The notes under the pieces are model-generated. The model was not told where the DNA came from. It ran no database searches and saw nothing but the letters and a program-made list of their open reading frames with translations. A stretch of DNA of 64,000 nucleotides. Source: a virus. Lineage: Duplodnaviria; Caudoviricetes. Below, piece after piece: positions 26,409 through 54,617 of this stretch. Position 1 is the stretch's first letter. Each line of letters opens with the position of its first letter. The position numbers and the translations under genes were made by a program. The stretch is from the IMG/VR virus record IMGVR_UViG_2806310702_000003, positions 1-64,000 of that record; one strand, 5' to 3'.

Positions 26409-26879
26409 TTATTTTTGCGAATTAAATTTCATGAAAACTAACCAATGCGTCTTTGCTCTTTTATTTCCCAATAAAGGTTTATGATCTATAACCTTTAAAA
26501 TTTCTTTTAGCTTTATTTGTTCCTCATTCCACTTAAAAATTAATACTCCATAGTTGTCTAAAACTCTCATGCATTCTTCAAACCCTTTTTTAATATCTAT
26601 TGGCCAATCATTATTTAACTTTCCATATTTCTTGGCCAACCAAGAATTTTCTCCAACTTTAATTAAATGTGGTGGATCAAAAACTACTAGCTTGAAAGTA
26701 TTATCTTTATATGGAATATGTCTAAAATCTCCTACCACATCTGGTTTAATTATTAATTTTCTTCCGTCACATAATGTATCTTCCAATTCTCTATTATCCA
26801 TAAAAATTGCATCTTTATTTTCTTTATCAAACCAAAACATTCTGCTTCCACAACATACATCTAATATAGGCTTTTCCAA
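26409..26879 (-). CDS. SAM-dependent (amino-)DNA methyltransferase-like protein
   Basis: ILDVCCGSRMFWF SAM motif and DPPH catalytic motif. Confidence 0.85.
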   Translation of the reverse strand: MEKPILDVCCGSRMFWFDKENKDAIFMDNRELEDTLCDGRKLIIKPDVVGDFRHIPYKDNTFKLVVFDPPHLIKVGENSWLAKKYGKLNNDWPIDIKKGFEECMRVLDNYGVLIFKWNEEQIKLKEILKVIDHKPLLGNKRAKTHWLVFMKFNSQK

Positions 26880-26901
26880 ACTCTCACCCCTTCACAATCT
26901 A

Positions 26902-27498
26902 CTATTTTTGTACATGTTTATTTACTTCTGATATCTTCTTATATATATCTGCTATAAGAATTCCTGTTCTTGTTAAATTAGCATCGTTTTTTATTAACTT
27001 CTTTTTATTCAATATTAATAACTGGTGTTTTGACACTAATATTAAATTATTAATATTAAAATTAGCTCTGTTACCATCTCCAAATATGATCATATGTCCT
27101 TTGGGAATTGGACCATTATGTTTTTCCCAAATTAGATGGTGTTTTAATCTCCATTTATTTGGTTCTTTTATTTTAATTTCTGTATATCCATCTGCTGTTA
27201 TTCTTTCACTTCCTACTTCTTTGTGGTTATGGGGTTTATGTCCATTTTTAAACCATGTTTTTTCGCAGCCTTTGTTGTATACACCCTTAATTCCTTTATT
27301 CCATGGTTTATAACCTTTTGGGAATTGCCCAGTTAATCCACTTTTAAGTTTATGTCTTTTTTTAAAAGCTTCTATCTGGTTAATTGTTAAATTCAATAAA
27401 AAATGTTTGTTAAATTTAGCAGTAAGTTCCTTGGTGCTTATACCTTTAACATTGTTTTTTATAAAATCCGACTGTTCTGCTGTAAATACATGAGCCAC
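26902..27498 (-). CDS. HNH endonuclease
   Basis: PWNKG repeat, KHHLIWE..GPIP..FGDGNRAN..NL. Confidence 0.8.
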   Translation of the reverse strand: MAHVFTAEQSDFIKNNVKGISTKELTAKFNKHFLLNLTINQIEAFKKRHKLKSGLTGQFPKGYKPWNKGIKGVYNKGCEKTWFKNGHKPHNHKEVGSERITADGYTEIKIKEPNKWRLKHHLIWEKHNGPIPKGHMIIFGDGNRANFNINNLILVSKHQLLILNKKKLIKNDANLTRTGILIADIYKKISEVNKHVQK

Positions 27499-27500
27499 TT

Positions 27501-27734
27501 TTATCCCTCCAGCATTTTAGGTAATTCTGTAGTTTCTCTTCCTAATGTTTCAGCTTGTACTTTTTTAGCGTTTAAAATTAATACTCCATTACTTATTATC
27601 TTATTAGCTACATCTGTAACTGCTTTTGCTCTGTTTATCTCTTGTTTTAATTCTTCTCCTGTTAAATCTTCATCACTCAATCTTTCTAATTGAGCAAATA
27701 AATGATTATTTAAATCACCAAGTGTGTTTCTCAT
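27501..27734 (-). CDS. Conserved phage hypothetical protein
   Basis: MRNTLGDLNNHLFAQLERL, a recurring phage motif; strong RBS. Confidence 0.7.
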   Translation of the reverse strand: MRNTLGDLNNHLFAQLERLSDEDLTGEELKQEINRAKAVTDVANKIISNGVLILNAKKVQAETLGRETTELPKMLEG

Positions 27735-28108
27735 AATACCTCCTATAACTATTTTAGTTTCTTTTTGTGCGAAATTACTTGTTTTTGTAAGTAAAAAATT
27801 TGCTATTTTTTAAGCATTCTTTCTTAGTTGTTACAGAAATGTTTAACTGCTTTCGAATAGCTTGTACTACAAGTATAACAAACTATATTGTCTTTGTTAA
27901 ATGCTATTTAAGCATTTTGAAGGTATTAATACATTAAAAAGAGTTATTTGAACTAAATAGCTTGTATTTTCTTTTAATATAGCGAAATTACTTTCTTTTT
28001 TTATTGAATTGGTGTTTATAGGTATGATATAATGTTCTTGCGGCATACTTTATAATAAAGTATACTGATTTATAAAATAATTTGATATAAAGAAAAGAGA
28101 GGGTTACA

Positions 28109-28522
28109 ATGGCAATTTTAAAGAAGGAAAGTAAAAAAAGTGAAATGAAAACATTAGGACAGAAAATAAGGGAACAGAGAAAATCAAAGGGTTTGACAAT
28201 AAGAGATTTAGCACAACTTTGTGAAGTATCATCTTCATTTATAGGTTCTATAGAACGAGGTGATAATATGCCTAGCATGATAAGAATTAAGCAATTAGCA
28301 CACATACTAGGTCTAAGCATAACTTATTTACTAGGTGAAAAAGAAATGGAGATAAATGAAAAAGAAGTGCTTGATCGTTTAAAAGATGGAAATGACAATT
28401 ATGAAAATTTCTTAAAAAATCATGTATTTCCTAACGGATTAACTTATGACCAAATGTGTGATAAAATAAAAACATTTGAGCAGTTCCAAATTTTACTTGA
28501 AAATGCAAATAAAAAGAAATAA
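28109..28522 (+). CDS. XRE-family HTH repressor (CI-like)
   Basis: LGQKIREQRKSKGLTIRDLAQ..VSSSFIGSIERG; divergent from early genes. Confidence 0.88.
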   Translation: MAILKKESKKSEMKTLGQKIREQRKSKGLTIRDLAQLCEVSSSFIGSIERGDNMPSMIRIKQLAHILGLSITYLLGEKEMEINEKEVLDRLKDGNDNYENFLKNHVFPNGLTYDQMCDKIKTFEQFQILLENANKKK

Positions 28523-28593
28523 TATATAAAATTAAACATACAGAAATAGGACAAGTTGAAAAATAACTTTATCCTATTTCTTTTTTTATTAAA

Positions 28594-29553
28594 TTATTTT
28601 TTATTATCATACCATCCTAATAATTTTTTTTCTAAATCATTATAATCATAAGAACGCTGCTCGTAGTTATTAAATGAATCAACATTATTTTCTTTTTTAT
28701 CTTCAACAATTATATTGGTTGTATTTTGCTTATCGATATTATTTAATGTCGCAAGTAAATAGGTATCATAATTTTTTATATCCGTAGAAACTGTAGAAGC
28801 AGTTATTATTGCTTTTGCTATATTCATATAATCATATACTAATAGTAATTTTTCTATAGTAGTACGTTTAACTTTATAATTACATTTTTGAGCAATACAT
28901 AAAATGTATTTAATCTTTTCTTCTTCATCTGTAGAAGAAGAAGATTTATTATCAGTATTTGTTATATTTTTAGTATTAGTATTAATAAGTATTTGTTGTC
29001 CTTCCTTTTCTATATATAGTTTTTCTACTTGTACCTTTTGGGAAAGTAGTTCAAACGCAGATGTTTCCTTGCTTTCTTCTAGTTTTCCCTTTTGGCAAAG
29101 TAGTATTTCTTCTCTTTCAAGCACAATAGGAATTTGTCTTGTAAATTTACCTACAGTTATTTTTTTAGTTACTATGTTTCCAGTTTCATCTTTTAGATAC
29201 TTTTCTTTTACAGAAGCAATAATAAGATGATCCTCAAAAGGTTCTTCTGATACTAGAGTTTCCCAATGATGAACCTTGCCTGTTTCCATATCGTACACTC
29301 TATACCTTTGCATATATTTGTTTTCTATTAATTCATTTATTCCACTTCTAACTGATTTTTCTTTATCTCCAAAACGGATTAAGTCTGATATATACACTTG
29401 CCAATCATTCGGTTTTGAAAGAATATATGTAGCTATTCCAAGTGCTTTATATGATAAATTTTTATTATTTATTAGATTATTTGAGATTTGAGCGAATTTA
29501 TCTTCCTTTTTTGCTTTTCTAAAGATGCTTTGATTTAAATTGTTTATTGACAT
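28594..29553 (-). CDS. Replication initiator protein
   Basis: wHTH N-terminus (LSYKALGI..YILSKP.DW) and C-terminal FNNYEQRSYDYNDLEKKLLGW typical of clostridial phage Rep. Confidence 0.8.
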   Translation of the reverse strand: MSINNLNQSIFRKAKKEDKFAQISNNLINNKNLSYKALGIATYILSKPNDWQVYISDLIRFGDKEKSVRSGINELIENKYMQRYRVYDMETGKVHHWETLVSEEPFEDHLIIASVKEKYLKDETGNIVTKKITVGKFTRQIPIVLEREEILLCQKGKLEESKETSAFELLSQKVQVEKLYIEKEGQQILINTNTKNITNTDNKSSSSTDEEEKIKYILCIAQKCNYKVKRTTIEKLLLVYDYMNIAKAIITASTVSTDIKNYDTYLLATLNNIDKQNTTNIIVEDKKENNVDSFNNYEQRSYDYNDLEKKLLGWYDNKK

Positions 29554-29618
29554 AAAAAGTCCTCCTATTATGTATCTAAAAAAGCTTACACAAATAAGAG
29601 GTTTTTACCTAAAATCTA

Positions 29619-29647
29619 TTGACTATTATATATACATATAATATAAT
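29619..29647 (+). promoter_or_regulatory. Sigma-A promoter pointing away from rep
   Basis: TTGACT-17 bp-TATAAT. Confidence 0.8.
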
Positions 29648-29653
29648 TATGTA

Positions 29654-29749
29654 TATAATAAGTATATAGAAAAAGGTTAAACCTTTATTGTGCATCCGTA
29701 TCAATTTTAGCGGTCAAACTAATGGATTGATACGGGTTTGTTCTTTTTT
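29654..29749 (+). ncRNA. Putative antisense copy-control RNA (~95 nt)
   Basis: Lies between the promoter and a CCGTATCAAT/ATTGATACGG hairpin with T tract; antisense to the rep leader. Confidence 0.6.
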
Positions 29750-29912
29750 GATATTTATTTTTTATTTTCGATTATTTTTGTATTTATATTGTAATTTTAC
29801 AACATAATATAATAGTTTGTAAAGCGCTAGTTAAAAAACTGGTGCTTTTATTTTTATTTTACTTTTTATGGGATTTATTATAACATAGTAGATATAGATG
29901 TTATTAATATTC

Positions 29913-30150
29913 TATTATAAATCTATTAGGAAAATATCAAGCACACATTTTATAAAAACTTAATATTATAATTATTATAAATCTATCAGAAAGCTATCAT
30001 ATTTATACTTGGAATTAGTTATAAATATGATACAAACTTTATTTTAATAGAAAAACAATGAAAATATATTAGAAATATGTTGAATAAGTAGCATAAAAAA
30101 TATATACTATAAGTATTATTAGAATAAAAATAGTTTTCTAATAGAAATAT
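29913..30150 (+). repeat. parC-like repeats upstream of parM
   Basis: TATTATAAATCTAT at 29913 and 29973 (60-bp spacing) plus degenerate TATTAGAA/AATAGAAA copies. Confidence 0.5.
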
Positions 30151-30170
30151 ATTAAATTGGGGGAAGTAAT

Positions 30171-31094
30171 ATGGGAATTGAAAAAGAAATACAAATTATA
30201 GGATTGGACATAGGAAGAGGATATGTCAAGGGGTATTCTGAAATAAACGAAATGAAGAAAGAAGTACTTTTTAAATCTATAATAAGTGAAGGAAGATCAC
30301 TTAATTTTGATGAATTTGAAAATCCAATATATGTAGAAGCAGTTGGAGAAAAATATTTTGCAGGATTATTAGCTGAAAAGGAAGGGTATACACCTATTAG
30401 AAATAGTAAAGACAGCAAAGTATCTGATACAGTTGAAAAACTTGTTTACGCTGCATTAAATTCATTAGCAGTTAAAGAAAAAGTAAGTATAATGTTTGGT
30501 GTTCCTTATAAGCTTTTTAAAAAAAGTACATTAGAAGAAGTTGTATCAAAATATTCTAATAAAAATATTAAAATAAAAGATAATATAACTGGAGCATATA
30601 AAAATATAACAATATGTAATGTAAGTATATTTAGAGAAGCTGATGCAGCAGCTATGTGGGAAGTTAGAAATAACATGGAAAATGCTAAACCTATTGGAAT
30701 TGCAAATATAGGATTTAGAACAACAGAACTAAGTTATTTTGACAAAGGATTGAGGTTTAACGATAAATATTCTAAGACAATAGAACTGGGAAATAGAACT
30801 GCTTTAAAGATGATACAAGACCACCTCGAAAGTAATAATATAATGAAAGAATTACAAGAAATAGATAGTTCTGATGATTATGAAAATTTGAAAAGAAAAG
30901 CTTATAAAGTACTATCTGAAAGAGTTAGCCAAGATATTGAAGATAACTGGATTAACTTAGACGAAATGGAGATATTAATAGCAGGTGGAACTGCTAAACA
31001 CATGAAATTTGATGAAGGATTTAGAATAATAGATGAACCTCAAATGGCAACTGCTAAAGGGTTGTACTTAGTAGGTACTAGAGTTTTTAAATAG
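30171..31094 (+). CDS. parM: ParM/StbA actin-like partition ATPase
   Basis: IGLDIGRGYVK, NIGFRTT, AGGTA, ATAKGL actin-fold motifs. Confidence 0.9.
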   Translation: MGIEKEIQIIGLDIGRGYVKGYSEINEMKKEVLFKSIISEGRSLNFDEFENPIYVEAVGEKYFAGLLAEKEGYTPIRNSKDSKVSDTVEKLVYAALNSLAVKEKVSIMFGVPYKLFKKSTLEEVVSKYSNKNIKIKDNITGAYKNITICNVSIFREADAAAMWEVRNNMENAKPIGIANIGFRTTELSYFDKGLRFNDKYSKTIELGNRTALKMIQDHLESNNIMKELQEIDSSDDYENLKRKAYKVLSERVSQDIEDNWINLDEMEILIAGGTAKHMKFDEGFRIIDEPQMATAKGLYLVGTRVFK

Positions 31095-31102
31095 GTGATA
31101 TT

Positions 31103-31402
31103 ATGAAAAAAAGTATAAGTTTTAATTTAGAAGAAGATATTATAGAAAAGATAGAGCAATATCAAAAAGAAAAAAGGCTAAGTTCCAGAAGTGCTGCTCT
31201 TGAAAGAATAATTTTATCTATGGATCATATTAATATTAATAACATGTTAGAGATTTTCAAAAATACATTACAAAATAATAATATAGATACACAAGTAAAA
31301 AAAGAAGATGTAATAGTAGAAGAACCTTTAAAAGAAGAAATAAAAAACAACAAAATAGAAAATAGTGTAAATGATATATTTAGTAGTATGCCCCAAGATT
31401 AA
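31103..31402 (+). CDS. ParR-like RHH adaptor
   Basis: KKSISFNL...SRSAALERII RHH, directly after parM. Confidence 0.8.
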   Translation: MKKSISFNLEEDIIEKIEQYQKEKRLSSRSAALERIILSMDHININNMLEIFKNTLQNNNIDTQVKKEDVIVEEPLKEEIKNNKIENSVNDIFSSMPQD

Positions 31403-31504
31403 CTTGGGGTTTTGTTTTGAAAAAGTATAGGTATTTGATAATTTTAACTAGTTTATTTATATGTAAAAAAATGCTCTGGAGTATATTCCAGAGCATTCAA
31501 AATA

Positions 31505-33859
31505 TCATCTTATTGGTGCTGGTAATTTAGTTATAAATCTAGCATATCCATTTGTTGTTTTTATAAGATTTAAACTACTATACCTTTTCAAATTAAGCAA
31601 ATCTTCTAATTGAAACGGTTGTAATTCTTCTTCTAATTCTTTATAATTTTTCTTATCTGTACCTTGCAATAACATATAAGATGCTCCAGAAGCTTTTAAA
31701 GATTCTCTAATAGTTTCTATTTGACTTAAATAATGTGCTGATATAATAAATTTAAGTTGGAATTTACGACATTGAGGTAATATATCTTTAAGCATATTTT
31801 CGCTTGTAGGTGCTTGAAATATTTCATCTAATAATACATGAGTTCTCAATGGCTTATCATGTATTTTACCTCTAATTTGAGAAGCTAACCAAATTTTTGT
31901 TGTGAAATAAGTTACTATTACATTTTTAACATATTTAAGTGGATATTTATGTTCTGGAATTTTAATTAAGATTACTTTCCCTTGTTCTAGTTGTTCTACA
32001 AAATCTATATTATTTTCTAAGGATTTATTAAACATAAATTTTAATTTGAAATCTTCTTTTAATAAATTTATTCTATCTAATATGTGTTCTATTTTACTAT
32101 CTTTATTACTAAATCTTAGTGTTTTTACTTCTTTTGTTGTAGGGTCCTTAATTTCTTTTACTTCATTTAATTCATCTAGTGCTTTTATTTCATCTTCCAA
32201 AAACTTTTTTAAATTTTCTGGAGTTTCTTCATATAATTTATCTCTAGTAGCAGGATATTGTAATGCATTTATAACATCTCTAAGACTTTTATTTTCTTTT
32301 AAATGCACTATATTAGCTGCTGCACTTAAATACCTTCTCATTCTAGAAGTTAAAGGAGCACCATCACTGTTTATTGCATCTATTAAAGCCATATCTTGTT
32401 GTGCTATTAAATTAGCAGTTTCTAAAATTTCAAACTCTGTCATATTCTCCTTAAATTTAATTTCGTTGTAACCAAACCCTTGTAGGTCCTGTTCTTTTGA
32501 CATATCTATAATTAGTAGCTTTTCTTTAGGTACTACTGTTTCAATATCACTAGACAACTCACAGTTTTTAATAAAATCTAAAACTATAAGGTTTTCTCCA
32601 GCTTTAATTACATCACTTGCATAATTTTTGAAGTATTCGGACTTTCCAGAACCCTGTGGACCCATAACTACTAATCCTAAATTTGCTAAGTTTTTATCAC
32701 TGCTCATATACGCTAGTTTCTTATTGCCTTTATAATCATTTTCTCCTAGTTTTATATATCCATTTTGCAATTCTTGTGAAAGTTGATTTTCCAGTATATT
32801 TCTATGTTGAATACAACTATATTTTTCTAGTAAATCTCTAGCTGGTAACTGGATAAAATTATGACATTCCTCTGTGCTTATTCTGTTTTCTTCAACTCTT
32901 GCAATTTTAAAATCAGTTGCATTAAATATATGTTTTTTAGAAATTTTTCTATATGAAAGTTCATTATCTTCTGAAATAGAGTTATAAGATTCCATAATTG
33001 AAATGATATTATTACGTTTCCTAATAATTTCTGTACTATCTGATAAAACTAAAATTTGAGTATTTAAGATAGTAGCTTCTTTTTTATTTAGTGTATGTGT
33101 AGAAAGTTTTTTATTAGAATTTAACAAACATGTTGCAAGTTCAAGCAAAGTTTCCTTATTATCTTTTTTTATTTCACCTCCTATAAAATCCAGAATGCTT
33201 TCTGTAAGCATCTGCATAAATTCTAATGCATAAGTGAATATAGTTTTTATTATAAATGCACTACTTCTTTTTTCCCGTTCTAGAGGTAAATTTCTTTTGA
33301 ATTTATTTAGAGTTTCATTATAATTCTTTTTCCATGACAATTGACAACAAGGCATGAAATTATAAAATATTCCTATACGATCATCATCTTTTAATATATC
33401 CAATACATTTAAAATTTGATTAAGAGGTGTATTAGATTTTTTATTGATATTTAAAGATAAAGCATCTTCTTTTTTATAATTTAATTGATATTTAAGAACA
33501 TCTTGAGAAAAGGATTTAACTTCCTTTACTTCTTCTATAGTTATTTGTGACCAAGTTTGAAGAATTTTATCTTTTATAAGAGTTGCATATTGTTCTGGAA
33601 CTATAAAATAAAAACTAGTATTATCTTTTGTTATATCTATAAAATAACTGCACTTTACTTGTGTTTCTATAAAATATTTTTTTTCAACCTTTTTAATTCT
33701 CTGATTAATGGTTTTATACATACTTTGAATTGATTTTGCTATATTGGAACTATCATAATTTCTTATAGATGAATGTGGAATAAGTTTTAAATAAATATAC
33801 TTTGGTTTAATTATTTCAAAGTAGTTAGATATTTTAATACTAACTTTTTTCTTAAACAT
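31505..33859 (-). CDS. HerA/FtsK/VirD4-superfamily ATPase
   Basis: GPQGSGKS Walker A, LLDE Walker B, CRKF arginine-finger-like motif; 784 aa. Confidence 0.75.
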   Translation of the reverse strand: MFKKKVSIKISNYFEIIKPKYIYLKLIPHSSIRNYDSSNIAKSIQSMYKTINQRIKKVEKKYFIETQVKCSYFIDITKDNTSFYFIVPEQYATLIKDKILQTWSQITIEEVKEVKSFSQDVLKYQLNYKKEDALSLNINKKSNTPLNQILNVLDILKDDDRIGIFYNFMPCCQLSWKKNYNETLNKFKRNLPLEREKRSSAFIIKTIFTYALEFMQMLTESILDFIGGEIKKDNKETLLELATCLLNSNKKLSTHTLNKKEATILNTQILVLSDSTEIIRKRNNIISIMESYNSISEDNELSYRKISKKHIFNATDFKIARVEENRISTEECHNFIQLPARDLLEKYSCIQHRNILENQLSQELQNGYIKLGENDYKGNKKLAYMSSDKNLANLGLVVMGPQGSGKSEYFKNYASDVIKAGENLIVLDFIKNCELSSDIETVVPKEKLLIIDMSKEQDLQGFGYNEIKFKENMTEFEILETANLIAQQDMALIDAINSDGAPLTSRMRRYLSAAANIVHLKENKSLRDVINALQYPATRDKLYEETPENLKKFLEDEIKALDELNEVKEIKDPTTKEVKTLRFSNKDSKIEHILDRINLLKEDFKLKFMFNKSLENNIDFVEQLEQGKVILIKIPEHKYPLKYVKNVIVTYFTTKIWLASQIRGKIHDKPLRTHVLLDEIFQAPTSENMLKDILPQCRKFQLKFIISAHYLSQIETIRESLKASGASYMLLQGTDKKNYKELEEELQPFQLEDLLNLKRYSSLNLIKTTNGYARFITKLPAPIR

Positions 33860-33860
33860 A

Positions 33861-35271: not shown

Positions 35272-36420
35272 TTAAATAAGTTTTATATAATCTGCGCTTA
35301 CATATCCTCCGTGTGATCCATAATAAATTTCATACCAATTTCCAACCTTTTTAAAAATCTTAACAGTATCATTTTTATTTAAAATTCCTAAAATATTATT
35401 ATTAGTTGTAGTGTCCATAGCACTTCTTATTCTTACTCCGTTTCCTGTGCAAGAACCTATGCGGCTATCTAAAGAACCACTAGAGTTATTGCTAGTTGTT
35501 GTAGCTTTACCATTTTTGAAATTATTTAATGGGAAATACTTCCCTGGGCAATTAGAACTTCCAACCTCTCTATGTCCATATATACCCATGTTTCCATATT
35601 TATTTTTGAGATAAGATATTAATTGTAATCCAGCATTAAATTGTGTATCAGGCATGCTTTTATCCGTATTATGATAATCACCCTCGAATGCAATACCAAT
35701 AGAATTTTTATTAAATCCCTTGCAGTGTGAACCTAGTGTCCACTCTGGTCTACCTCTATAAATAGAACCGTCTTTCCTAATATAAAAATGATAGCCTATA
35801 CCTACCCAGCCATTTCCTAAATGTAATTGATGTAGCCTTTCTATGTTCCAGCCAGTACATTCAGTATGATGTAGTACAATATTTCTCGGACTATTATTGT
35901 TAGGTAATCCATTTCTAAAATTTAAATTTGTATCTATAATATTCATAAAATTACTTCCCTTCATATCATATTGATTTAAATTATAATAGTTTATTAATTT
36001 TAAAATCTTATCTATATAATTAGGATCACTTGTATATCCTCCATTAAAAATTGCTTGTATTTGCTCCTTATAGTCTTTAGCCGTAAAAACACTTGCTTCT
36101 ACATACCATTTCTTTTTCAAAAACAAAGCATGATCAAGTATACTTTCTGACCAACTATTATAAATCCTAAAAGGTTGTTTAACAGTAATTATTCCACTGC
36201 GTGTGTATTCTCTAGTATCTATATTAGCAATAGGTCCACTCCAATCTCTTAACGCTTTAATTCCAAAAAGGTTATTATATTTTTTAGCTAAGACACTTGA
36301 ACCCCAGCCACTCTCTAATATTGCTTGTGCTATAGATACACTAGCAAATATTTTATATTTAATTTGTGTATCTATAGCACTATCTTTTATTTTATTTATA
36401 AATTCTAGCTGTTCACACAT
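35272..36420 (-). CDS. Endolysin: glucosaminidase + amidase_2 + SH3
   Basis: AQAILESGWG/NNLFGIK; VLHHT, GIGYHF, SIGI, GHRE..CPG; SH3 GYVSADYI. Confidence 0.93.
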   Translation of the reverse strand: MCEQLEFINKIKDSAIDTQIKYKIFASVSIAQAILESGWGSSVLAKKYNNLFGIKALRDWSGPIANIDTREYTRSGIITVKQPFRIYNSWSESILDHALFLKKKWYVEASVFTAKDYKEQIQAIFNGGYTSDPNYIDKILKLINYYNLNQYDMKGSNFMNIIDTNLNFRNGLPNNNSPRNIVLHHTECTGWNIERLHQLHLGNGWVGIGYHFYIRKDGSIYRGRPEWTLGSHCKGFNKNSIGIAFEGDYHNTDKSMPDTQFNAGLQLISYLKNKYGNMGIYGHREVGSSNCPGKYFPLNNFKNGKATTTSNNSSGSLDSRIGSCTGNGVRIRSAMDTTTNNNILGILNKNDTVKIFKKVGNWYEIYYGSHGGYVSADYIKLI

Positions 36421-37675: not shown

Positions 37676-37752
37676 TAGAAATTAATCTACTAGCTTATTT
37701 TTATGTATTAATTGTTTTATTGTTTACTTCGTAATATTTTTCTATTACGCAA

Positions 37753-37887
37753 TTAATCTTCTGTGTATTCTTGTCCTGTTATCTTTTTGAATTCTTCTTT
37801 AGTTATACAATTCCACTTACACGCTTCTTTCACTAATTCAAATTTTAACATTCCTTGTTTATAAAAAACATTATAAAAATCAAACAT
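37753..37887 (-). CDS. XkdX-family protein (not in ORF track)
   Basis: MFDFYNVFYKQG...ITKEEFKKITGQEY, 44 aa. Confidence 0.85.
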   Translation of the reverse strand: MFDFYNVFYKQGMLKFELVKEACKWNCITKEEFKKITGQEYTED

Positions 37888-38316: not shown

Positions 38317-39786
38317 CTATATTTCTATTTCACATTTGTATTTGTTTAAAACCTGTCTATGATATGACCCTGCTGTTTCATATTCTAGTCTATATATATA
38401 CCCATCATTAGATATATCCCAATTTATCGTAGTATAATCCTCTGGATAAGAACTACTATAAGTAAAATTGCCTAGAGAAATACTTAAATTAGAATTTACG
38501 ATATAAACTATTTCATTTTTATTTAAATTTAATCTATTATTTTTATGTTTTTTATCTATATATCCATATTCACCTTCGTGATTAGATTTTAAATTAAAAT
38601 CTTTATCGAAAATATAAGTGTAAAAAGTAGAATCACTTGTACTTCCAGTTGAAAACAGACCAATTGCACATATATAGTTATCATTTACATTTATTTTTTG
38701 AAGATAAATACTACTTCTATCATCAATATTTGTTTTTACAGTTTTTTGGAGTGTGCCATCTATGCTATATATATCAATTTCGTTACTATAATATTTTATA
38801 TAATACGCTAGATTATCATATACATCTAAAAATGTATAATTCTTTTCATTTTTAAATTTTTTTATATATTTATCAGCTTTTAAATCATATATGGATTTCG
38901 TAGTAAACAAAGTATCATTTTTAGAAATACTAGGTGACTCACCTGCAACACAACATAAAAATTTTAAAGTATCTTTATTAAAAACAAAGCAATAATCTTC
39001 TCTGTTCACCTCCCCTTCTACGACTAAATATTTATTGAATTGAGAAATTGTACCTAATTTAGATCCGCTATCAACACATTCAGTTTTTATTGTTTGAAAA
39101 TCATTTGCGGATACTATATTTATATAATTAGAATTAGTCGTTGTATAAATTTTAGAACTATCTGTGTTATCACATGAAAAACTTGCTAGATGTTCAACTT
39201 TATCGTATAAAGATGAAATTTTTTTTATATCTACTTTAGGGTTTAAAGTGTTTAAATTTGCAAAATTATATATTTTTTTTGTTTCTACTGTTTCTATACC
39301 GTTTTTCAATTCTTCAAAGCTTGCTATGTCTTTACTTTTAGAAACTTTTCCACCTCTGTCAATAATGGTTGTTTCTAAAAGTTTTTTTCCATTACTGACA
39401 TAGGTAAAATTTTCCTTAATATCTTTCTTAAAATCTTCATATTGCGAATTAACTTCTTGCTTAAAATCTTTAATTTCTTGTGTAGTTTTTCTTTCTAAAT
39501 TTGTAATTTTACTATCTGTATCCTTCTTATTTTCTTCGAGTGTAGCTTTAGTGTTATTTTTAAATTCTTCAATTTCTTGTGTGTTTTTTATTTTTAATGT
39601 TTCTATATCTTTGCTATTTTGAAAAATCCCTTCCTCGAGGTGATTAAGATTTTCAGCGTTGAGGTTCGATCCTTCTTCTTTAACGCCTGTATTATCTTTT
39701 TCTATAATTGTCGGTTTACCATCAACTAAATAAGTAGTTGGCTTTGTATCTATTCTATCTTTAAAATTTATTTTTTTATAAACCAC
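38317..39786 (-). CDS. Tail fibre/receptor-binding protein B
   Basis: GSNLNAENLNHLEEGI anchor, coiled coil, VSNGKK motif, beta-rich C-terminus. Confidence 0.75.
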   Translation of the reverse strand: MVYKKINFKDRIDTKPTTYLVDGKPTIIEKDNTGVKEEGSNLNAENLNHLEEGIFQNSKDIETLKIKNTQEIEEFKNNTKATLEENKKDTDSKITNLERKTTQEIKDFKQEVNSQYEDFKKDIKENFTYVSNGKKLLETTIIDRGGKVSKSKDIASFEELKNGIETVETKKIYNFANLNTLNPKVDIKKISSLYDKVEHLASFSCDNTDSSKIYTTTNSNYINIVSANDFQTIKTECVDSGSKLGTISQFNKYLVVEGEVNREDYCFVFNKDTLKFLCCVAGESPSISKNDTLFTTKSIYDLKADKYIKKFKNEKNYTFLDVYDNLAYYIKYYSNEIDIYSIDGTLQKTVKTNIDDRSSIYLQKINVNDNYICAIGLFSTGSTSDSTFYTYIFDKDFNLKSNHEGEYGYIDKKHKNNRLNLNKNEIVYIVNSNLSISLGNFTYSSSYPEDYTTINWDISNDGYIYRLEYETAGSYHRQVLNKYKCEIEI

Positions 39787-44181: not shown

Positions 44182-44184
44182 CTC

Positions 44185-48493: not shown

Positions 48494-48499
48494 TTAATT

Positions 48500-48691: not shown

Positions 48692-48983
48692 AAAAGTTCC
48701 TTAATTCTGTACTAACTTTAGTTATTAATTCTGTAGCATTCTCAGCCTTTTCTATTTGTTCTTTTAAATTTTTAGGACTAATAACTAATTCATCTATAAG
48801 CATTTCTGTAAGCATACCTACTTTATAAGCACCATTTTCCAAATTCAAAGCACTAGAAAGTATATCTGTAACTCTAAAAGGACTTATTTCTTGTACTACT
48901 ACATTAACTTTCTTTTTTTCTTCCTTTCCTTCTTTATTTGTTATTATTTCTATATCAAAATTACTTTGTACCATATTATTCAT
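48585..48983 (-). CDS. Tail assembly chaperone B
   Basis: Directly downstream of tube; LVISPK motif. Confidence 0.6.
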   Translation of the reverse strand: MNNMVQSNFDIEIITNKEGKEEKKKVNVVVQEISPFRVTDILSSALNLENGAYKVGMLTEMLIDELVISPKNLKEQIEKAENATELITKVSTELRNFCDNPRCYHLKKVERECKEKVENMEFNTSKHNIDRS

Positions 48984-49389: not shown

Positions 49390-49400
49390 TTAACCACCTC

Positions 49401-50423
49401 CTATAAATTCATGACAACAGAACCATTCACAACAGTTCCATGTATTGCTCCAGCTTCAACATACTTAAATGTAATTCCAGTTAAAATTCTTGCTTTTCTA
49501 TTCTGTTCTGATATTTTATCTACTGTTTTATAATCTATTTTAAAATCACCTGTTCCCTCAGAAGTTTCTGCAATTATGCCTTTATCAAAGGCTCTATTCA
49601 AAGCAGTTTTTACTGCACTAACTATTTTTTGTATTCCATTATCTGTATAAGGGATTTTATCACTATTCATGAGTACATTTGCAATTTCATATTCAATTTG
49701 ATTTTTAATATAATCTCTACTTTCAATTTGGTCTATATATATACCACTAGCCATTTTCCCATCATCTAATTGTGCAATCCCATATTTTTTTACATATGCA
49801 TTCATATTAGATTTTCTAATTTTAGTTAATTCAGTATTTGTTAAAACATCAGCAGTAATATTATTAAGATGTTTAAATTTAAAAGTAAAACTTCCAGCAG
49901 TTCTAGTTGTTGCATATCCTACTGTTGCTGCATCTAATCTTTCATCACTTTTATCTTTTTTAAATTGTATACAGGTTCTGTTTTTACCAGAAAAATCTCC
50001 TTTTAAATTTTCTTTAACTACTGTATAAAATGTTTTCTCATTACCTTCTGCAAAATCACTTACAACTTTTATTAACTCTTCTGTTTTATCATCTAAAAGT
50101 ATTCTGTAGAAATCATTATGTTCTGCAATAAGCGTATTTAATGCATCTTTTAGATCAGTAGCTTTTTTCATACTACTGCTTAAATTTTTACCAAAAATAG
50201 CAACCGTGTCCGGTCTAGGTTCTTGGCTTGCTAAAGTTTCTACTATTTTATAAATTTCAGTTTCAGTATCAAAATCTTTTTTTACTTCTGATATATCCTC
50301 ACTTATATCAAATTCTTTATATTTATAATCTTTATTTGTAGCTATCACTAAAGTAAGACCAAAGCCAGCTATACTAATAGCTTTACTTGCATCAGTAATA
50401 TCTACTTTTATATCACTACTCAT
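49401..50423 (-). CDS. Tail sheath protein (DUF3383-like)
   Basis: GSFTFKFK, DGKMASGIYID, KIPYTDNGI, AGAIH. Confidence 0.88.
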   Translation of the reverse strand: MSSDIKVDITDASKAISIAGFGLTLVIATNKDYKYKEFDISEDISEVKKDFDTETEIYKIVETLASQEPRPDTVAIFGKNLSSSMKKATDLKDALNTLIAEHNDFYRILLDDKTEELIKVVSDFAEGNEKTFYTVVKENLKGDFSGKNRTCIQFKKDKSDERLDAATVGYATTRTAGSFTFKFKHLNNITADVLTNTELTKIRKSNMNAYVKKYGIAQLDDGKMASGIYIDQIESRDYIKNQIEYEIANVLMNSDKIPYTDNGIQKIVSAVKTALNRAFDKGIIAETSEGTGDFKIDYKTVDKISEQNRKARILTGITFKYVEAGAIHGTVVNGSVVMNL

Positions 50424-50444
50424 TTATACAACCTCCTTTAAGTG

Positions 50445-50948
50445 TTACTGCAATTCTATTTCTTCTATTGTATCTACTTGTGTTTCTACAATATCTCCAA
50501 CTCTTAATCTTATATCGAACCCCCATTTATACACATAACCTGTTTCTAAAATAGAAGTTTTATCAACTAATTTCGTACAATCTAATAGTATTATATCACA
50601 TTTGTACGAAATTAGTTGTTTTTGAGTTTGTAAAAAAGACATAGTGTTTGTAGCAAATATCATAGCTTCTTCTTGTTTATCTGAATAAAAAGTTAAGGAG
50701 AAAGTCATTTGAGGTTCTGTAAATCTAGTTATCTTTACACCATTTTTAGTAGAAGTTTCTATAATAGTGCCTTCAAAAGTATCATTGTCTTGTATATATC
50801 CTACAAGAACATTAGTTATGCAATAAGGATAAGACGGTAAATTATGAATACTATTTCCTTTTATAAATTTATAATTTTTATTTATTTCTTTCATGTTTTT
50901 ATTAAGGTATGCATTTATCTCAGTCCATACTTCAAATAAATTAACCAT
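50445..50948 (-). CDS. Neck/tail terminator protein
   Basis: PSYPY...GFDIRLR; upstream of sheath. Confidence 0.65.
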   Translation of the reverse strand: MVNLFEVWTEINAYLNKNMKEINKNYKFIKGNSIHNLPSYPYCITNVLVGYIQDNDTFEGTIIETSTKNGVKITRFTEPQMTFSLTFYSDKQEEAMIFATNTMSFLQTQKQLISYKCDIILLDCTKLVDKTSILETGYVYKWGFDIRLRVGDIVETQVDTIEEIELQ

Positions 50949-51279
50949 TTATATTTTCAATCCTTTTCATAAAATATCTCTTAAAATCTGATATAATATC
51001 ATATTTTCTAGCACCATATATTTTATATTTAATCCCTTTTACAGTTTCAATAACTGTGTTACTTTGTAAATCTTCATCAGTATATAATTTCATATCCTCT
51101 ATGTCATATGTTCCTTCCGGAAGATATTGCATATCTCTTTCACTTAAAGGAAGTATAGCACCTGTAAAAGTAATTTCCTTTTCTTCTCCTTCTATATAAT
51201 CTCCACCATCATTATAACTTCCTTCTGTAGCTAATTTATATTTTAATTTTTGCTTAATGCTATCTGGTATTAAATTCAT
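50941..51279 (-). CDS. Head closure-like neck protein
   Basis: GAILPLS..MQY.PEGTY..DMKLYT. Confidence 0.65.
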   Translation of the reverse strand: MNLIPDSIKQKLKYKLATEGSYNDGGDYIEGEEKEITFTGAILPLSERDMQYLPEGTYDIEDMKLYTDEDLQSNTVIETVKGIKYKIYGARKYDIISDFKRYFMKRIENING

Positions 51280-51546
51280 TTAATCAACCCTTTCATATGT
51301 TTTCTCAAATATATCTGGTTTACAAGGGTAAAACTCTCCATTAACCCCTTTTATAATATAATCACCTGTATTTGCTAACATATCTCCTTCTAAGGTTTTA
51401 ATAATTAATGCTATAGGTCCTGTTGTTCCCATGCCTTTAATCTCAATGTTTTCCTTCGCAAACTCTTTTATCTTGTTATAACTAGCAAAATCACCTACAA
51501 ATTGCATTGCTTCAATTTCCACTGGTTTCTTTCTATATTTACTCAT
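51280..51546 (-). CDS. Conserved small phage protein (YRKKPV...[22 protein letters not shown] family)
   Basis: Highly recognisable phage motif; function not established. Confidence 0.75.
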
Positions 51547-51633
51547 TTATCCAACCTCTTTCTATTAAAATTTTTATTTTTAAAATATTTTTAAATTTAT
51601 AATTGTACCTTTAATTAATTTTAAAATTTGTTT

Positions 51634-52146
51634 TTATTCTACTTTCCAAGTTATGCTTTCTCTTAATCTCCCACTATCAATAAGAGGATTTGATTTACCT
51701 TTTTTTCTTTCTATAGTAAAAGGGTGATTGGGTGGAGAAGATACTTCTGTTAGGACCTCTTGTGTAAGTCCAGCCAAAAACTGTCCTACTCTATCACAGA
51801 ATATATTTACATCTATTCTAAAAGTTAATAATTCCGTTAATCCTTCTTTTATGATCTTATTCAATTCATCTTTTCTTTCCTGTGTGGTCCTTCTAATAAA
51901 ACTTCTTTCTGGTATATGTATTTGAGAAGTACTCTTGTTAACATGTAATCCATTATAGTGTAACCATGCCCTCATCTTAGGTGTTATATTTATATCACAA
52001 CCAAATTCTTGTACCCTTGCAACCATAAGAATGTGGCTATCATCTGCACCAAATATACCTATCTTTATTTTCTTAGACTTCAATTCTTCTATAGTTTGTT
52101 TTAATCTAGGTAAATCATCTTTTCTTACTGTTTTAGTAACTCTCAT
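51634..52146 (-). CDS. Neck/tail completion protein
   Basis: QEFG...IPERSFIR...PLIDSGRL. Confidence 0.8.
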   Translation of the reverse strand: MRVTKTVRKDDLPRLKQTIEELKSKKIKIGIFGADDSHILMVARVQEFGCDINITPKMRAWLHYNGLHVNKSTSQIHIPERSFIRRTTQERKDELNKIIKEGLTELLTFRIDVNIFCDRVGQFLAGLTQEVLTEVSSPPNHPFTIERKKGKSNPLIDSGRLRESITWKVE

Positions 52147-52757
52147 TAAATCCTAATGCTCCTGTATTTTTTAATAGTTGCCAGTTGCATTTCTGATAAT
52201 CTAATATTACTTTTCCACTCTAGTTTTACATCTGAAATAGAATAAGACCTTAATCCTTTATTAACTGCTTCTGAATTATCTAGTCCCATCTGTTCCTTTA
52301 ATAACTGGAGAAGCAATAATTTTAAATCTCCTGGTATTTCCTTATATCCAGCATTGTATTCAACCCTTATATACCTTTGTGGAAAATTAATTCTACCACT
52401 CATTAAATTACTGCTACCTACTTGCCACCAAGCTAAGTCCCTATACAGTATTCCAGCCTTTGTATTTATATCGTACTCATGTTCTTCTAATGATTTTTCT
52501 ATAGAACCATTGCAAATATACTTAATGCTATTAATAGAATTTATAGGGTATTGTTTTAAAATTAAAGAGTTTGAATTTGTTCCAGGATATTTTTCTACAT
52601 AGTCTTTAGCCAGAATATCTCTGCCTATTTCTCCTTCGATTATTTCTGTTATTCCTTCCATATATAGTTTCAAAATTAAATCTTTACTTGTATCTTCTTT
52701 ATCTATATTTAAGAACTGTTTAACTTCTTCTAATGTACATAAATTCAATATTTGCAC
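52146..52757 (-). CDS. Head-tail connector B
   Basis: LCTLEEVKQFL...VEYNAGY..IPGDL. Confidence 0.8.
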   Translation of the reverse strand: MQILNLCTLEEVKQFLNIDKEDTSKDLILKLYMEGITEIIEGEIGRDILAKDYVEKYPGTNSNSLILKQYPINSINSIKYICNGSIEKSLEEHEYDINTKAGILYRDLAWWQVGSSNLMSGRINFPQRYIRVEYNAGYKEIPGDLKLLLLQLLKEQMGLDNSEAVNKGLRSYSISDVKLEWKSNIRLSEMQLATIKKYRSIRI

Positions 52758-52825
52758 CTCCTATAAACTAATTTTATCATAAATAAAAAAGAGGGTGTGT
52801 TTTCCCTCTTTTTCTTAATAGTTCT

Positions 52826-53188
52826 TTATTTTTGCGAATTAATTTCTAAATCTTCTTTATTGAAATATAACTGCTCATAATATTCATCATGACTAATTAT
52901 TTCTAAGAATAAACTAAATACTGCAGCACACGTTCCTATAAACAGTAACCCCAACATAACAACCCACGCTATAGGATTAAGTTTATTAAAACCTATCTCA
53001 TATTCAACTCTAGCTAAGTTTATTGGTTCTTCTCTTTTTTTTAATAATGTTGTAATTTTAGTTATCTTAATGGTTGTAATCTTAAAAATATTATCTAATT
53101 TCCCAATAAAACCATTATTGTGCTTTAGACGTATATCTTTTTTAAATTTTCTTTTAATTTTTTTATTCATAAACATTCCCTTTTTCAT
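52826..53188 (-). CDS. Hypothetical membrane protein
   Basis: One TM segment. Confidence 0.5.
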   Translation of the reverse strand: MKKGMFMNKKIKRKFKKDIRLKHNNGFIGKLDNIFKITTIKITKITTLLKKREEPINLARVEYEIGFNKLNPIAWVVMLGLLFIGTCAAVFSLFLEIISHDEYYEQLYFNKEDLEINSQK

Positions 53189-53375
53189 ACTCCTTTATTT
53201 CCTTTCCATCGGAATCTAAAGTTATCTCAAAACCACATTTACAACTTCTTTTGAAGATGTCACCATCAATTAGTATTTTACCTTCAATATCTCCAACTTT
53301 ATAACTACCACAAACTGGACATTTTTCATATTTTCTTATTAAACTTACAACTTTAAATGCTTCCATCTTAATCAC
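53163..53375 (-). CDS. Zn-ribbon protein (DUF3797-like)
   Basis: CPVCG...FKRSCKCG. Confidence 0.65.
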   Translation of the reverse strand: MIKMEAFKVVSLIRKYEKCPVCGSYKVGDIEGKILIDGDIFKRSCKCGFEITLDSDGKEIKEYEKGNVYE

Positions 53376-53542
53376 TCCTATATAATTTTAAATTTTCTTA
53401 ACACTCTACCTAAAAAGGTTAAATTCTCTTTAAATGCTACTTTGCAATCCCAACACTCATACTCTTTGTGACCATCTTTAAATTCAATTTCTATCATTTC
53501 TTCTTTACAATTAGGGCACTTTATTGTTAACACCTACTTCCC

Positions 53543-53767
53543 TTACTTCATGCATATACCTGTTAGTTGTCCGTACTTTTCGTATAATCTTTTAAGATTA
53601 TCAATTTCTAAATCCATAATGAATATATCTTCTCCACATTCGTTGCAAACGCCTATATTTTCTATTACATTTACTTTTACACCTTTGTATTCTGCCATAA
53701 GTTCTTTTCTTATCGTATAATTAACTTCTTTATTGCATTTAGCACAAAAAATTCTATCTTCTTTCAT
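53543..53767 (-). CDS. YgiT/MqsA-type Zn-finger protein
   Basis: CAKC...YKG..V.V....VCNECGE. Confidence 0.7.
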   Translation of the reverse strand: MKEDRIFCAKCNKEVNYTIRKELMAEYKGVKVNVIENIGVCNECGEDIFIMDLEIDNLKRLYEKYGQLTGICMK

Positions 53768-53820
53768 ATATCAATGCCCCTTCACAATCTACTATTTTTC
53801 TTTACTTTATTTTTGCGAAA

Positions 53821-54567
53821 CTAATCTAATTCATTTCTTACAATTTCTTTTACTATTTTTAATAGAAATTGATTAGTTTTTTCATTTGGTTTTTGTGTTT
53901 TATATTTTTCTTCATGTTCTTTAGCAATACTTAACATATATTCCGCCATGCTTTCAAAATCTGATTTAGAATATACTCCATTTTTTATATTTAACAGCCA
54001 TTTTCTATTACATTCATCTTTTTCATACCATATTGCTTTTTTAAAATCTGTAAAATTATTATTAGCAAATCTTATTAAAAAATCTAATATCCTTATACTA
54101 TGCATAGCTTGTTTGGTATCATATCCATATTTATTAACTAAATGTTGTGTTCCCTGTGTCCCTTTATCTACTTGCTTCTTTTTATTAATGTGCATACCAA
54201 TACAAGCATTATATAAATAAGGTAGATTCATTTTTACAATTTCATTTCTCATATTATAAATTTCAGTTATTAAAAACTTTGTTTTTATATCAATATTGTC
54301 AGGTATTAAAAATTTTTTACTAAACAATACTTCGAGAAAATTTACATTAGACTTCCACCACAAACTTGATATTTTCCTTATATCATGTACATCATAATCC
54401 TCTGTTTCTCCTATATAGGATTTACTAAATTGATTATTGAAATATAAATCATTAAATGTTGGAGCTACAAATAATTTATAATCCTTATCACTTGTCTCTG
54501 TATTAAGATTATAATTATGAGAACCTACTAAAACCCTAAATAATTCTTTTCTTCCTTCAAAATCCAT
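53821..54567 (-). CDS. DNA polymerase beta-superfamily nucleotidyltransferase
   Basis: GSHNYNLNTETSDKD (GS..Y.....SDxD), N.NFLEVLFS, YDTKQAMH.IR. Confidence 0.85.
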   Translation of the reverse strand: MDFEGRKELFRVLVGSHNYNLNTETSDKDYKLFVAPTFNDLYFNNQFSKSYIGETEDYDVHDIRKISSLWWKSNVNFLEVLFSKKFLIPDNIDIKTKFLITEIYNMRNEIVKMNLPYLYNACIGMHINKKKQVDKGTQGTQHLVNKYGYDTKQAMHSIRILDFLIRFANNNFTDFKKAIWYEKDECNRKWLLNIKNGVYSKSDFESMAEYMLSIAKEHEEKYKTQKPNEKTNQFLLKIVKEIVRNELD

Positions 54568-54617
54568 TTTGCCTTCTCTCCTTCACAATCTACTATTTTT
54601 TGTACATGTATTGAAGC

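Follow-up and report, generated by a model that had tools for sequence, protein, structure and literature searches.

The window, the whole stretch of 64,000 nucleotides that was analysed, covers positions 1 to 64,000 of the 89378-bp virus record IMGVR_UViG_2806310702_000003, and it holds two arrays of accessory genes in which short repeated elements, here called M1 and M2, lie at the gene junctions. One array belongs to phage A and the other forms an island in phage B, the two phage genomes of this record. In the order in which the genes are read, the features are as follows.

26902..27498, minus strand: HNH endonuclease gene, upstream of the M1 element
26889..26917, minus strand: M1 element opening the phage-A array, ACATGTAC-AAAAATAGTAGATTGTGAAGG on the coding strand, containing the TAG stop of the HNH gene
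26409..26879, minus strand: DNA methyltransferase cassette gene, 156 aa (phrog_954, E 5e-84), whose last residues, NSQK and stop, are encoded by M2
26407..26421, minus strand: M2 element, followed by GAAGGTGAAAT and then the TTG start of the next gene
26045..26395, minus strand: 116-aa gene behind M2; different genes lie upstream of the same gene in the related records G004 and G016
54618..55868, minus strand: sigma-70-family gene, 416 aa, heading the island within the structural genes of phage B
54580..54609, minus strand: M1 element opening the island array, directly behind the sigma-factor gene
53821..54567, minus strand: nucleotidyltransferase cassette gene, 248 aa (phrog_388; RlaP is a weak match)
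53779..53819, minus strand: composite junction of M2 (53805-53819), TAAAG and M1 (53779-53799)
52826..53767, minus strand: four-gene block encoding a 74-aa CxxC protein, a 51-aa zinc-ribbon protein, a 70-aa DUF3797 protein and a 120-aa protein ending in NSQK and stop
52824..52838, minus strand: terminal M2 element of the island array
52785..52814, minus strand: hairpin resembling a terminator, with a T run, directly after the last M2

On the coding (minus) strand M1 reads TACGYAAAAATAGTAGATTGTGAA and M2 reads TTCGCAAAAATAAAG. Their first 12 letters are identical, and the two are forms of one junction element with the common core TWCGCAAAAATA; the division into separate 5′ and 3′ motif classes in a preliminary description of this DNA is not supported. 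That description had placed the first motif at three boundaries, each time with a ribosome-binding-site-like GAAGG ahead of an unrelated gene, and this was confirmed: CCTTCACAATCTACTATTTTT occurs exactly three times in the window (26889-26909, 53779-53799 and 54580-54600, vs 0.01 expected), GTACATGT comes after two of these copies, and on the coding strand each M1 copy ends in GAAGG, 8-14 nt ahead of the start codon of the methyltransferase (26409-26879), the 74-aa CxxC protein (53543-53767) or the nucleotidyltransferase (53821-54567). The second motif was likewise found where it had been reported, at the ends of open reading frames on the minus strand, with three exact copies of TTCGCAAAAATAAAG (26407-26421, 52824-52838 and 53805-53819, vs 0.00 expected), two of which encode NSQK and stop as the C-terminus of their frames, while the third lies directly behind a stop codon. 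A fourth exact copy of each form lies outside the window, M1 at 73415-73435 and M2 at 72933-72947.

The reading that an AT-rich genome produced the repeats by chance, practically negligible in probability, is refuted. Second-motif matches at two mismatches are indeed no commoner than in shuffled sequence (3 found vs 1.91 expected, with 28 of 100 shuffles reaching 3), a threshold at which the scan is uninformative; for exact copies, however, 0 of 100 shuffles reached three with either motif, so both exceed the AT-rich background that the preliminary description had named as the yardstick. Moreover, 17 records have the 15-mer M2 at gene junctions, in a single orientation, and 0 matches to a reversed control pattern turned up in the 11 further records scanned with it. 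Conservation of M2 falls off sharply at either edge of its 15 nt, and the copies are nearly exact: over 566 junction windows, in which background begins at four mismatches, we counted 19 exact copies, 4 with one mismatch, 1 with two and 3 with three. Variants such as TACGCA..TATGAA and TACTCA..TGTCAA occur among the copies. The part of the element upstream of the ribosome-binding site is TTCGCAAAA, and the GTGA of the element also belongs to that site.

Besides 17 records of related phages, the comparison took in two named Clostridium genomes. The 36 M2 copies in the 17 records (at most one mismatch) are all oriented with the genes, and no reversed M1 or M2 was found in 20 sequences. The elements are confined to arrays of non-structural genes, and in all 19 arrays with at least two elements (a count that omits L262, a near copy of G005) M1 comes first and M2 then follows each gene; five M2 copies are single and stand alone. 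Composite M2+M1 junctions of the same build as 53779-53819 also occur in G003, G012 and G014, and in G005 the same methyltransferase gene as in this record is flanked by M2 on both sides. A ribosome-binding site and start codon follow within 25 nt in 23 of the 36 M2 copies, those near a start lying 4-25 nt before it, most often at 10-11 nt, whereas 5 copies, all of them ending an array, have no start codon within 60 nt. The phages that carry the elements probably reside as plasmid prophages in clostridia allied to C. botulinum group III. An 18-mer scan with one genome per species gave 71 matches, of which only L262, L281 and L292 (C. niameyense, C. massiliodielmoense) were judged genuine; the 76 matches of a 16-mer scan of the same kind were set aside, on a judgement that covers the low-GC loci, where all 24 matches read had contexts unlike the motif.

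The junctions that carry the element are broken between relatives. The flanks were compared for 597 pairs of M2 copies, each pair drawn from two different records: 13 pairs were alike only in the upstream 60 nt, 6 only in the downstream 60 nt, and none in both. No motif junction type was conserved in another record (0/22), whereas 26/77 ordinary junctions no more than 4 kb away were (Fisher p 6.5e-4), as were 71/190 of all ordinary junctions. Homology blocks end within 25 nt of an element in 38 of 156 cases, whereas only 38 of 905 gene starts lie that near one. The homology of the window with G004 and G016 starts exactly at the M2 edge, 26422, and a three-way junction was seen at 73435, where G003 matches phage B without a difference as far as ...ACGTAAAAATAGTA, and the identity of copy A begins at AAAAATAGTA. 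The clearest case is a methyltransferase cassette of 513 bp, bounded by M1 and M2, that sits in both phage genomes of the record (26397-26909 and 72923-73435) with 99.6% identity between unrelated flanks. From the one-sided sharing of flanks (19 pairs vs 0), the 0/22 conservation and this cassette, it follows that the earlier inference of cassette swapping holds; the related expectation, that breakpoints between relatives fall at the motifs, was borne out for the junction types and the one-sided pairs but not for the majority of block ends (118/156), which lie away from any element. These alignments show that genes bounded by the elements are exchanged between phages.

The element itself belongs to neither neighbouring gene. 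Of the downstream gene families that have the motif at least once, 16 of 28 members carry it; for the upstream families the figure is 16 of 24. A plasmid (pCLD) homologue of the methyltransferase, 87% identical, has no motif, ends in ...FMKK and stop, and lacks the NSQK tail. The 74-aa CxxC, 51-aa zinc-ribbon and 70-aa DUF3797 genes recur as a block, at 80% identity, in the early region of G016, and the counterpart site of phage A carries no motif:

22376..22573, minus strand: phage-A site of a 59-aa ORF (22383-22562), where G016 has a motif-bounded four-gene block instead

For the G005 cassette, a scan for an empty site, with its flanks joined to M2, matched only G005 itself. A tandem duplication in G016, the only M2 pair with both flanks alike, has a 419-bp unit that does not end at the motif and is therefore no evidence for exchange there. 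Homing by a neighbouring HNH gene was also rejected, an HNH endonuclease being only 1 of 55 flanking gene families scanned, as was a link to the 13-nt operator-like repeat TAATTTCGYACAA, because that repeat is absent from 14 of 16 other records.

We give an even chance to the reading that the element is a compact linker between accessory genes in one-directional arrays, within which phages cross over by short homology. In one of its reading frames the element would provide a stop codon, which would account for the NSQK tails, and its 3′ end would merge into the extended ribosome-binding site of the next gene. When phages recombine in one cell, crossover may occur within the element, guided by short homology, since identical letters stand at otherwise unrelated junctions; strand-annealing proteins encoded by the phages may assist. 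A gene between two elements could then be replaced or copied as a cassette, and a recent example would be the methyltransferase cassette, of which one phage genome of the record would hold a copy from the other. Genes for annealing proteins are present in phage B (Erf and Gam), in G001, G002 and G011 (RecT), in G006 (Erf) and in G005 (Sak4-like); in the phage-A lineage none was found among the 59 proteins scanned of 123 candidates. The shortness of M2 counts against this reading: its 15 nt fall below the minimum lengths of identity quoted for efficient exchange, 23-27 bp with Red-beta and 31-34 bp with RecA (PMC3945230). The near-exactness of the copies counts against passive recombination alone as the explanation and, as a pattern of conservation, points to selection or an active process. 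The conservation of TTCGC lies outside what the linker explanation accounts for.

In a rival reading the element is mainly a regulatory signal of early accessory genes, for instance a site in mRNA or DNA at which a translational regulator, processing enzyme or repressor acts, perhaps akin to the start-associated sequences or stoperators of mycobacteriophages. In that case breakpoints would fall at the element because viable recombinants must break between genes. We regard this as possible but doubtful. The asymmetry of the element, its constant orientation with the genes and restriction to non-structural arrays, the placement of 23/36 M2 copies just ahead of a start with the 3′ end fused to the ribosome-binding site, and the nearly exact, sharply bounded copies are all in its favor. 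Yet neighbouring gene junctions are conserved where motif junctions are not (26/77 vs 0/22), so the status of gene boundary alone is insufficient to explain the breakpoints; the element is no more tied to the downstream than to the upstream gene, and the 5/36 array-ending copies have no start codon within 60 nt. No protein family is present in more than 6 of the 17 motif-bearing records, which makes a phage-encoded binding factor unlikely. Neither hairpin nor covariation was found, and no sigma-70-like promoter was found overlapping any of the six window elements. An RNA hairpin TTCGC...GTGAA was rejected: folding energies equal those of controls, the TACGCA..TATGAA and TACTCA..TGTCAA variants break the pairing, and GTGA has a second role in the ribosome-binding site. 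No Rfam family matched in the window, where the sole terminator-like hairpin lies behind the last M2, outside any element.

Stoperators are asymmetric 13-15 bp sites between genes, in one orientation relative to transcription, and they match the repressor's operator at the early promoter. The clostridial elements are likewise asymmetric intergenic sites of similar size in one orientation, but we found no copy of M2 (exact or core) or of the M1 cores in the repressor/early-gene interval 27734-28109 of this record, within which the operator is assumed to lie, and stoperators are not known to act as mosaic breakpoints. Pope et al. 2011 (PMC3203893), who mention the stoperators of cluster A mycobacteriophages, describe the start-associated sequence (SAS) of cluster K, which has the consensus GGGATAGGAGCCC and lies 3-7 bp ahead of start codons. 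The likeness of SAS and ESAS to our element, a further point for the regulatory reading, is that each is short, asymmetric and repeated in one orientation, restricted to non-structural genes, just 5′ of start codons, overlapping the ribosome-binding site, sometimes holding the stop codon of the upstream gene, and preceding genes of different families. The clostridial sequence differs, however, and its gap from M2 to the start is mostly 10-11 nt; every informative motif junction is broken between relatives, some copies close an array with no gene behind, and, whereas ESAS are tied to their gene family according to Pope et al. (PMC3203893), the clostridial element is tied to neither neighbour.

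A second rival reading is dedicated site-specific recombination, an integron analogue in which M1 is a fixed entry site, M2 accompanies each cassette, and a phage or host recombinase acts on both; we consider this rather unlikely. Two recombinase genes of the window had been put forward as agents.

19035..19580, minus strand: tyrosine recombinase, 181 aa, catalytic domain only, a candidate of the preliminary description
20599..21210, minus strand: serine recombinase of resolvase/invertase type, the other candidate

The first is encoded ~7 kb away from the array; among solved structures its best match is XerC-like (E 7e-9), and IntI4 matches much more weakly (E 2.8e-5). Relatives of the two occur in only 9/17 and 6/17 records, and G002, a whole genome with both motifs, has no match to any tyrosine-recombinase query, which speaks against either as the agent. 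What recommends the analogy is the polar order of the arrays (19/19, none reversed), with a head site different from the site after each gene, the same-direction arrangement of small genes whose junction elements lack promoter-like sites, and cassettes common to different elements. In addition, the exact, sharply bounded 15-nt sites are below the homology length for efficient recombination, a tyrosine recombinase of 181-283 aa that keeps the catalytic-domain motifs lies 2-4 kb downstream of arrays in 9/17 records, and the M1 variant type is alike, by eye, in records with common backbone genes. Against this, integron attC sites are about 57-141 nt long and the clostridial sites 15-26 nt, without dyad symmetry, inverted repeats or an attC-type hairpin: 55-nt windows (38 M2, 21 M1) fold at a mean of about -3 kcal/mol, with z of -0.23 and -0.41, as do 117 control junctions (z -0.30). 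No IntI-type integrase adjoins the array head, the small recombinase was not found in G001, G002 (whole), G005, G006, G007, G011 or G014, and no recombinase or other protein family was found that accompanies the motif throughout the records. The M2-left/M1-right hybrid TTCGCAAAAATAGTAKWTT gave 6 matches in the virus collection, all in unrelated contexts, and the relative that lacks the motif at the site of one cassette block, noted above, also counts against the analogy. The earlier proposal of crossover sites for integron-like exchange thus stands for exchange points between relatives and falls for the integron mechanism; "integron-like" holds only as a description of architecture. A quite unlikely variant is an undescribed cassette-array system of clostridial plasmid prophages, with an M1 leader, a hairpin-less 15-nt M2 per cassette and a dedicated enzyme, perhaps the downstream catalytic-domain-only tyrosine recombinase or a host factor. 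If true, it would be a phage counterpart of the integron acting on double-stranded sites without symmetry.

To return to the linker reading, we consider recombination by short homology the likeliest mechanism, acting at a conserved linker of stop codon and ribosome-binding site that compares with the promoter-early stem-loops (PeSLs) of T4-type phages. PeSLs combine a sigma-70-like promoter with a terminator stem-loop, and mini-circles were shown for them (Arbiol et al. 2010, PMC2839356). Like the clostridial elements, they are short and conserved, separate small non-essential genes in hypervariable regions and mark the ends of insertions, deletions and replacements between relatives, and in both cases gene shuffling is attributed to recombination between copies. 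The clostridial elements differ in having neither promoter nor terminator stem-loop, in being shorter (15-26 nt), in forming a stop/ribosome-binding-site linker within an operon, and in occurring in two forms in fixed order.

The mosaic accessory genes of tailed phages are debated as products of random illegitimate joining plus selection vs recombination at conserved linkers. Here, phages among which no protein family extends beyond 6 of 17 records have their exchange points marked by a single 12-26-nt element, and its polar arrays together with a recently copied cassette offer a concrete sequence for testing the linker model. The element-bearing phages probably come from the pool of plasmids and prophages in the C. 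novyi / C. botulinum group III lineage, where module exchange is known to reshuffle traits (PMC4177856). A full-text literature search for the 15-mer found no paper, and the words motif, intergenic and cassette occur 0 times each in PMC4177856.

The preliminary description had further extended the motif to the tail-fibre region, where the sites were thought to bracket a receptor cassette; this was not upheld. The TTCGCAA cores at the fibre junctions (1265-1271 and 39442-39448) are intragenic, lying in a 49-nt repeat that is 82% alike, and continue ...TATG rather than ...AAAATA. The supposed variant behind xkdX, TTGCGTAATAG (37742-37752), is one arm of a hairpin, CGTAATA..TATTACG, behind a stop codon, and no variant of the motif.

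Both short motifs occur in the window exactly where the preliminary description had placed them, and in copy numbers far over chance: The first, a 21-mer, is present in three exact copies (0.01 expected), and the second, a 15-mer, likewise in three (0.00 expected), with one further exact copy of each, the fourth, in the part of the record beyond the window. A looser search for the second motif, allowing up to two mismatches, was uninformative (3 found versus 1.91 expected). Read on the coding strand, the first motif is AAAAATAGTAGATTGTGAAGG, and its end lies 8 to 14 nt upstream of the start codon of genes for a methyltransferase, a 74-aa CxxC protein, and a nucleotidyltransferase. The second, TTCGCAAAAATAAAG, includes the stop codon of two open reading frames (ORFs), both of which consequently end in NSQK (stop), while its third copy in the window is located immediately 3′ of a stop codon. 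With the upstream context included, the full first motif is TACGYAAAAATAGTA(GA/TT)TTGTGAA, hereafter M1, whose first 12 letters are those of the second motif, hereafter M2. Judged by its letters, M2 reads like M1 minus about 12 to 15 of them.

We examined 17 IMG/VR records that were chosen for carrying the motifs (G000 to G005 taken whole, G003 minus its last 82 bases, and G006 to G016 as 20-kb pieces), together with added loci from named genomes (L262 from C. niameyense; L281 and L292 from C. massiliodielmoense), where genes were simple longest-ORF calls. With up to one mismatch allowed, M2 has 36 copies, all of which run with the genes (0 reversed), and patterns for both forms detected no reversed element in any of the 20 sequences. 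The elements form arrays that reach seven successive junctions (G015), and in 19 of 19 arrays with at least two elements, M1 opens and M2 continues (L262, being nearly a duplicate of G005, was not counted). Five M2 copies are solitary. The window holds two arrays:

26909–26407, minus strand: array 1, consisting of M1, methyltransferase, M2
54600–52824, minus strand: array 2, consisting of M1, nucleotidyltransferase, M2 joined to M1, four small genes, M2, terminator

In relatives, the usual position of the arrays is immediately after the replication genes. Their genes, which encode methyltransferases, PAPS-reductase-like proteins, dUTPase/MazG, DUF1064, DUF3797, an HNH endonuclease, and many small unassigned proteins, are early accessory genes of the usual kind. 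A ribosome-binding site and a start codon are found within 25 nt of 23 of the 36 M2 copies.

The full record measures 89378 bp, of which the window is bases 1 to 64000 (G+C of the window, 27.8%), and the minus strand holds nearly all genes of the window. PHROG and Pfam scans and a self-comparison revealed two complete phage genomes in tandem and in one orientation in this 89-kb record, each with its own repressor, replication, structural, and lysis genes, and then a protein of 774 to 784 aa:

29553 (replication initiator) down to tail genes near base 1, resuming from the record's end: phage A
~80000 down to the endolysin at 35272: phage B
31505–33859 and record 80190–82514: the 774- to 784-aa proteins, function unassigned, 63% alike at the DNA level
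30171–31094: actin-like partition gene (ALP_N), between the two phage genomes

The partition gene suggests a plasmid prophage, and the whole record is probably a composite plasmid prophage; its named relatives are Clostridium phages and plasmids of the C. botulinum group III lineage. Between its head genes and its head-tail adaptor gene, phage B carries a transcription-unit-like island (52785–55986) made up of genes for a sigma-70-family protein (416 aa) and a nucleotidyltransferase, four small genes, and a terminator. The phage-B head genes also have an SSB gene (59121–59519) in their midst.

The proposal that the motifs mark points of gene exchange was borne out by the comparison across records. 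Defining a shared flank as at least 75% identity over 60 nt, we compared M2 copies across different records (597 pairs): 13 pairs share the upstream 60 nt alone, 6 the downstream 60 nt alone, and 0 share both. A single upstream gene end occurs with four different genes behind it (G003, G010, G012, and G015), and three different upstream genes precede one downstream gene (G006, G007, and G011). The sole M2 pair alike on both flanks is a 419-bp tandem duplication in G016, which ends away from the motif. This duplication (~13042–13880) takes in the last part of a 202-aa gene, M2, and the initial 254 bp of a 116-aa gene; the 116-aa gene is thereby present twice, once truncated and once in full. 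Junction types told the same story: 0 of 22 informative motif types were conserved in another record, versus 26 of 77 ordinary types within 4 kb (Fisher p 6.5e-4) and 71 of 190 ordinary types in all. Counted pairwise, with counts that are non-independent, motif junctions were conserved in 0 cases and broken in 45, versus 186 conserved and 186 broken for ordinary ones. Ends of homology blocks fell within 25 nt of an element in 38 of 156 cases, as compared to 38 of 905 gene starts; since the remaining 118 block ends lie away from elements, exchange at the elements is not the sole process.

Single cases display such exchange points directly. The 513-bp methyltransferase cassette at 26397–26909 (copy A) recurs at 72923–73435 with 99.6% identity between unrelated flanks; at the junction at 73435, G003 equals phage B up to ...ACGTAAAAATAGTA, and copy A matches from AAAAATAGTA on. 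In G005 this same methyltransferase gene has M2 at either side, and G004 and G016 are homologous to phage A starting exactly at M2, position 26422. A block of the phage-B island (53799–53189) is found again, beginning at base 1 of M1, in the G016 early region, where it stands in place of a 198-bp stretch of phage A (22376–22573); phage A carries no motif at this stretch, which counts against a simple exchange picture. A methyltransferase homologue on a plasmid, 87% identical, lacks the motif and has the C terminus ...FMKK (stop). The motif is found with 16 of the 28 members of the downstream gene families and with 16 of the 24 of the upstream ones: The element belongs to neither neighboring gene.

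Integrons, to whose mechanism the exchange had been likened, resemble the arrays here in architecture, but neither their defining site structure nor their integrase is present. Integron-type sites are excluded by structure, as the elements contain no inverted repeat and their folding energies equal those of control junctions. A dedicated recombination system of whatever type serving the elements appears quite improbable to us: No protein family (at least 50% identity) is common to more than 6 of the 17 records, and the two recombinases that the preliminary description had put forward do not accompany the motif. The first of these is

19035–19580: short tyrosine recombinase (181 aa) that lacks an N-terminal domain but has a catalytic one, located where the early genes give way to the HNH/terminase genes

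Its catalytic-domain motifs are kept, and matching proteins of 181 to 283 aa occur at the same place, 2 to 4 kb downstream of the arrays, in 9 of the 17 records; relatives were not found in G001, G002 (taken whole), G005, G006, G007, G011, and G014. The second, a serine recombinase (20599), has relatives in 6 of 17. General recombination genes vary, with Erf and Gam in phage B and G006, RecT in G001, G002, and G011, and a Sak4-like protein in G005, while none was recognized in the phage-A lineage among the 59 of 123 candidate proteins scanned. In many phages, a gene for a strand-annealing protein lies next to the SSB gene. The phage-A SSB gene is adjoined by a 345-aa homologue of NA37, the 37-kD nucleoid-associated protein (24229–25266, E 4e-79).

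The exclusion of integron sites, the lack of a common protein family, the recombinases that do not accompany the motif, and the varied recombination genes together lead us to favor recombination guided by the short shared element. The element would guide crossover between phages, as proposed for the promoter-early stem-loops (PeSLs) of T4-type phages in PMC2839356 (a second PeSL paper is PMC4122927), and its role as a linker of stop codon and ribosome-binding site would make the recombinants viable. PeSLs show the same behavior as the elements here with a different build. The start-associated sequences of cluster K mycobacteriophages share their placement and asymmetry but differ in sequence and, unlike the elements here, stay with their gene, according to the available text of PMC3203893. 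A full-text literature search for the 15-mer found no paper. In the accessible portion of the main paper on this plasmid/prophage pool (PMC4177856), module exchange is credited to integrases and IS elements, and "motif," "intergenic," and "cassette" have 0 occurrences each.

Two observations hold our confidence in element-guided recombination at about even. With 15 nt, M2 is below the shortest lengths of 23 to 27 bp for Red-beta and 31 to 34 bp for RecA that are stated in the available part of PMC3945230, which speaks against plain homologous recombination. Furthermore, among 566 junction windows, 19 copies are exact, and one, two, and three mismatches occur in 4, 1, and 3 copies, respectively, after which background sets in; this near-exactness suggests selection or an active process and also weighs against plain homologous recombination. 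The element might instead be a regulatory signal, an explanation that we consider less likely.

Two further sites that had been linked to the motifs turned out to be of a different nature. The TTCGCAA heptamers said to mark the fiber junctions fall within fiber-gene ORFs, as part of a 49-nt stretch (1245–1293 and 39422–39470; 82% alike) within both tail-fiber genes. Phage A ceases to be homologous to G004 and G003 right at this stretch (1246 and 1248), which may be a linker that allows distal fiber parts to be exchanged. The supposed variant behind xkdX, at 37742, is one arm of a small hairpin, CGTAATA-gaaaaa-TATTACG (37715–37760), directly 3′ of the stop codon of a small ORF and upstream of the lysis region.

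A separate 13-nt repeat, TAATTTCGYACAA, has 10 copies, nine in the window and one at 64284 outside, and was not found in 14 of the 16 other records. The copies in the window start at

60742, 59090, 55964, 50614, 36962, and 27777, minus strand
50568, 55928, and 58570, plus strand

By appearance, this repeat looks like an operator. One inverted pair surrounds a promoter-like site, TGTGATATAAT, near 50568–50620, and a second (55922–55971) lies immediately upstream of the sigma-factor gene.
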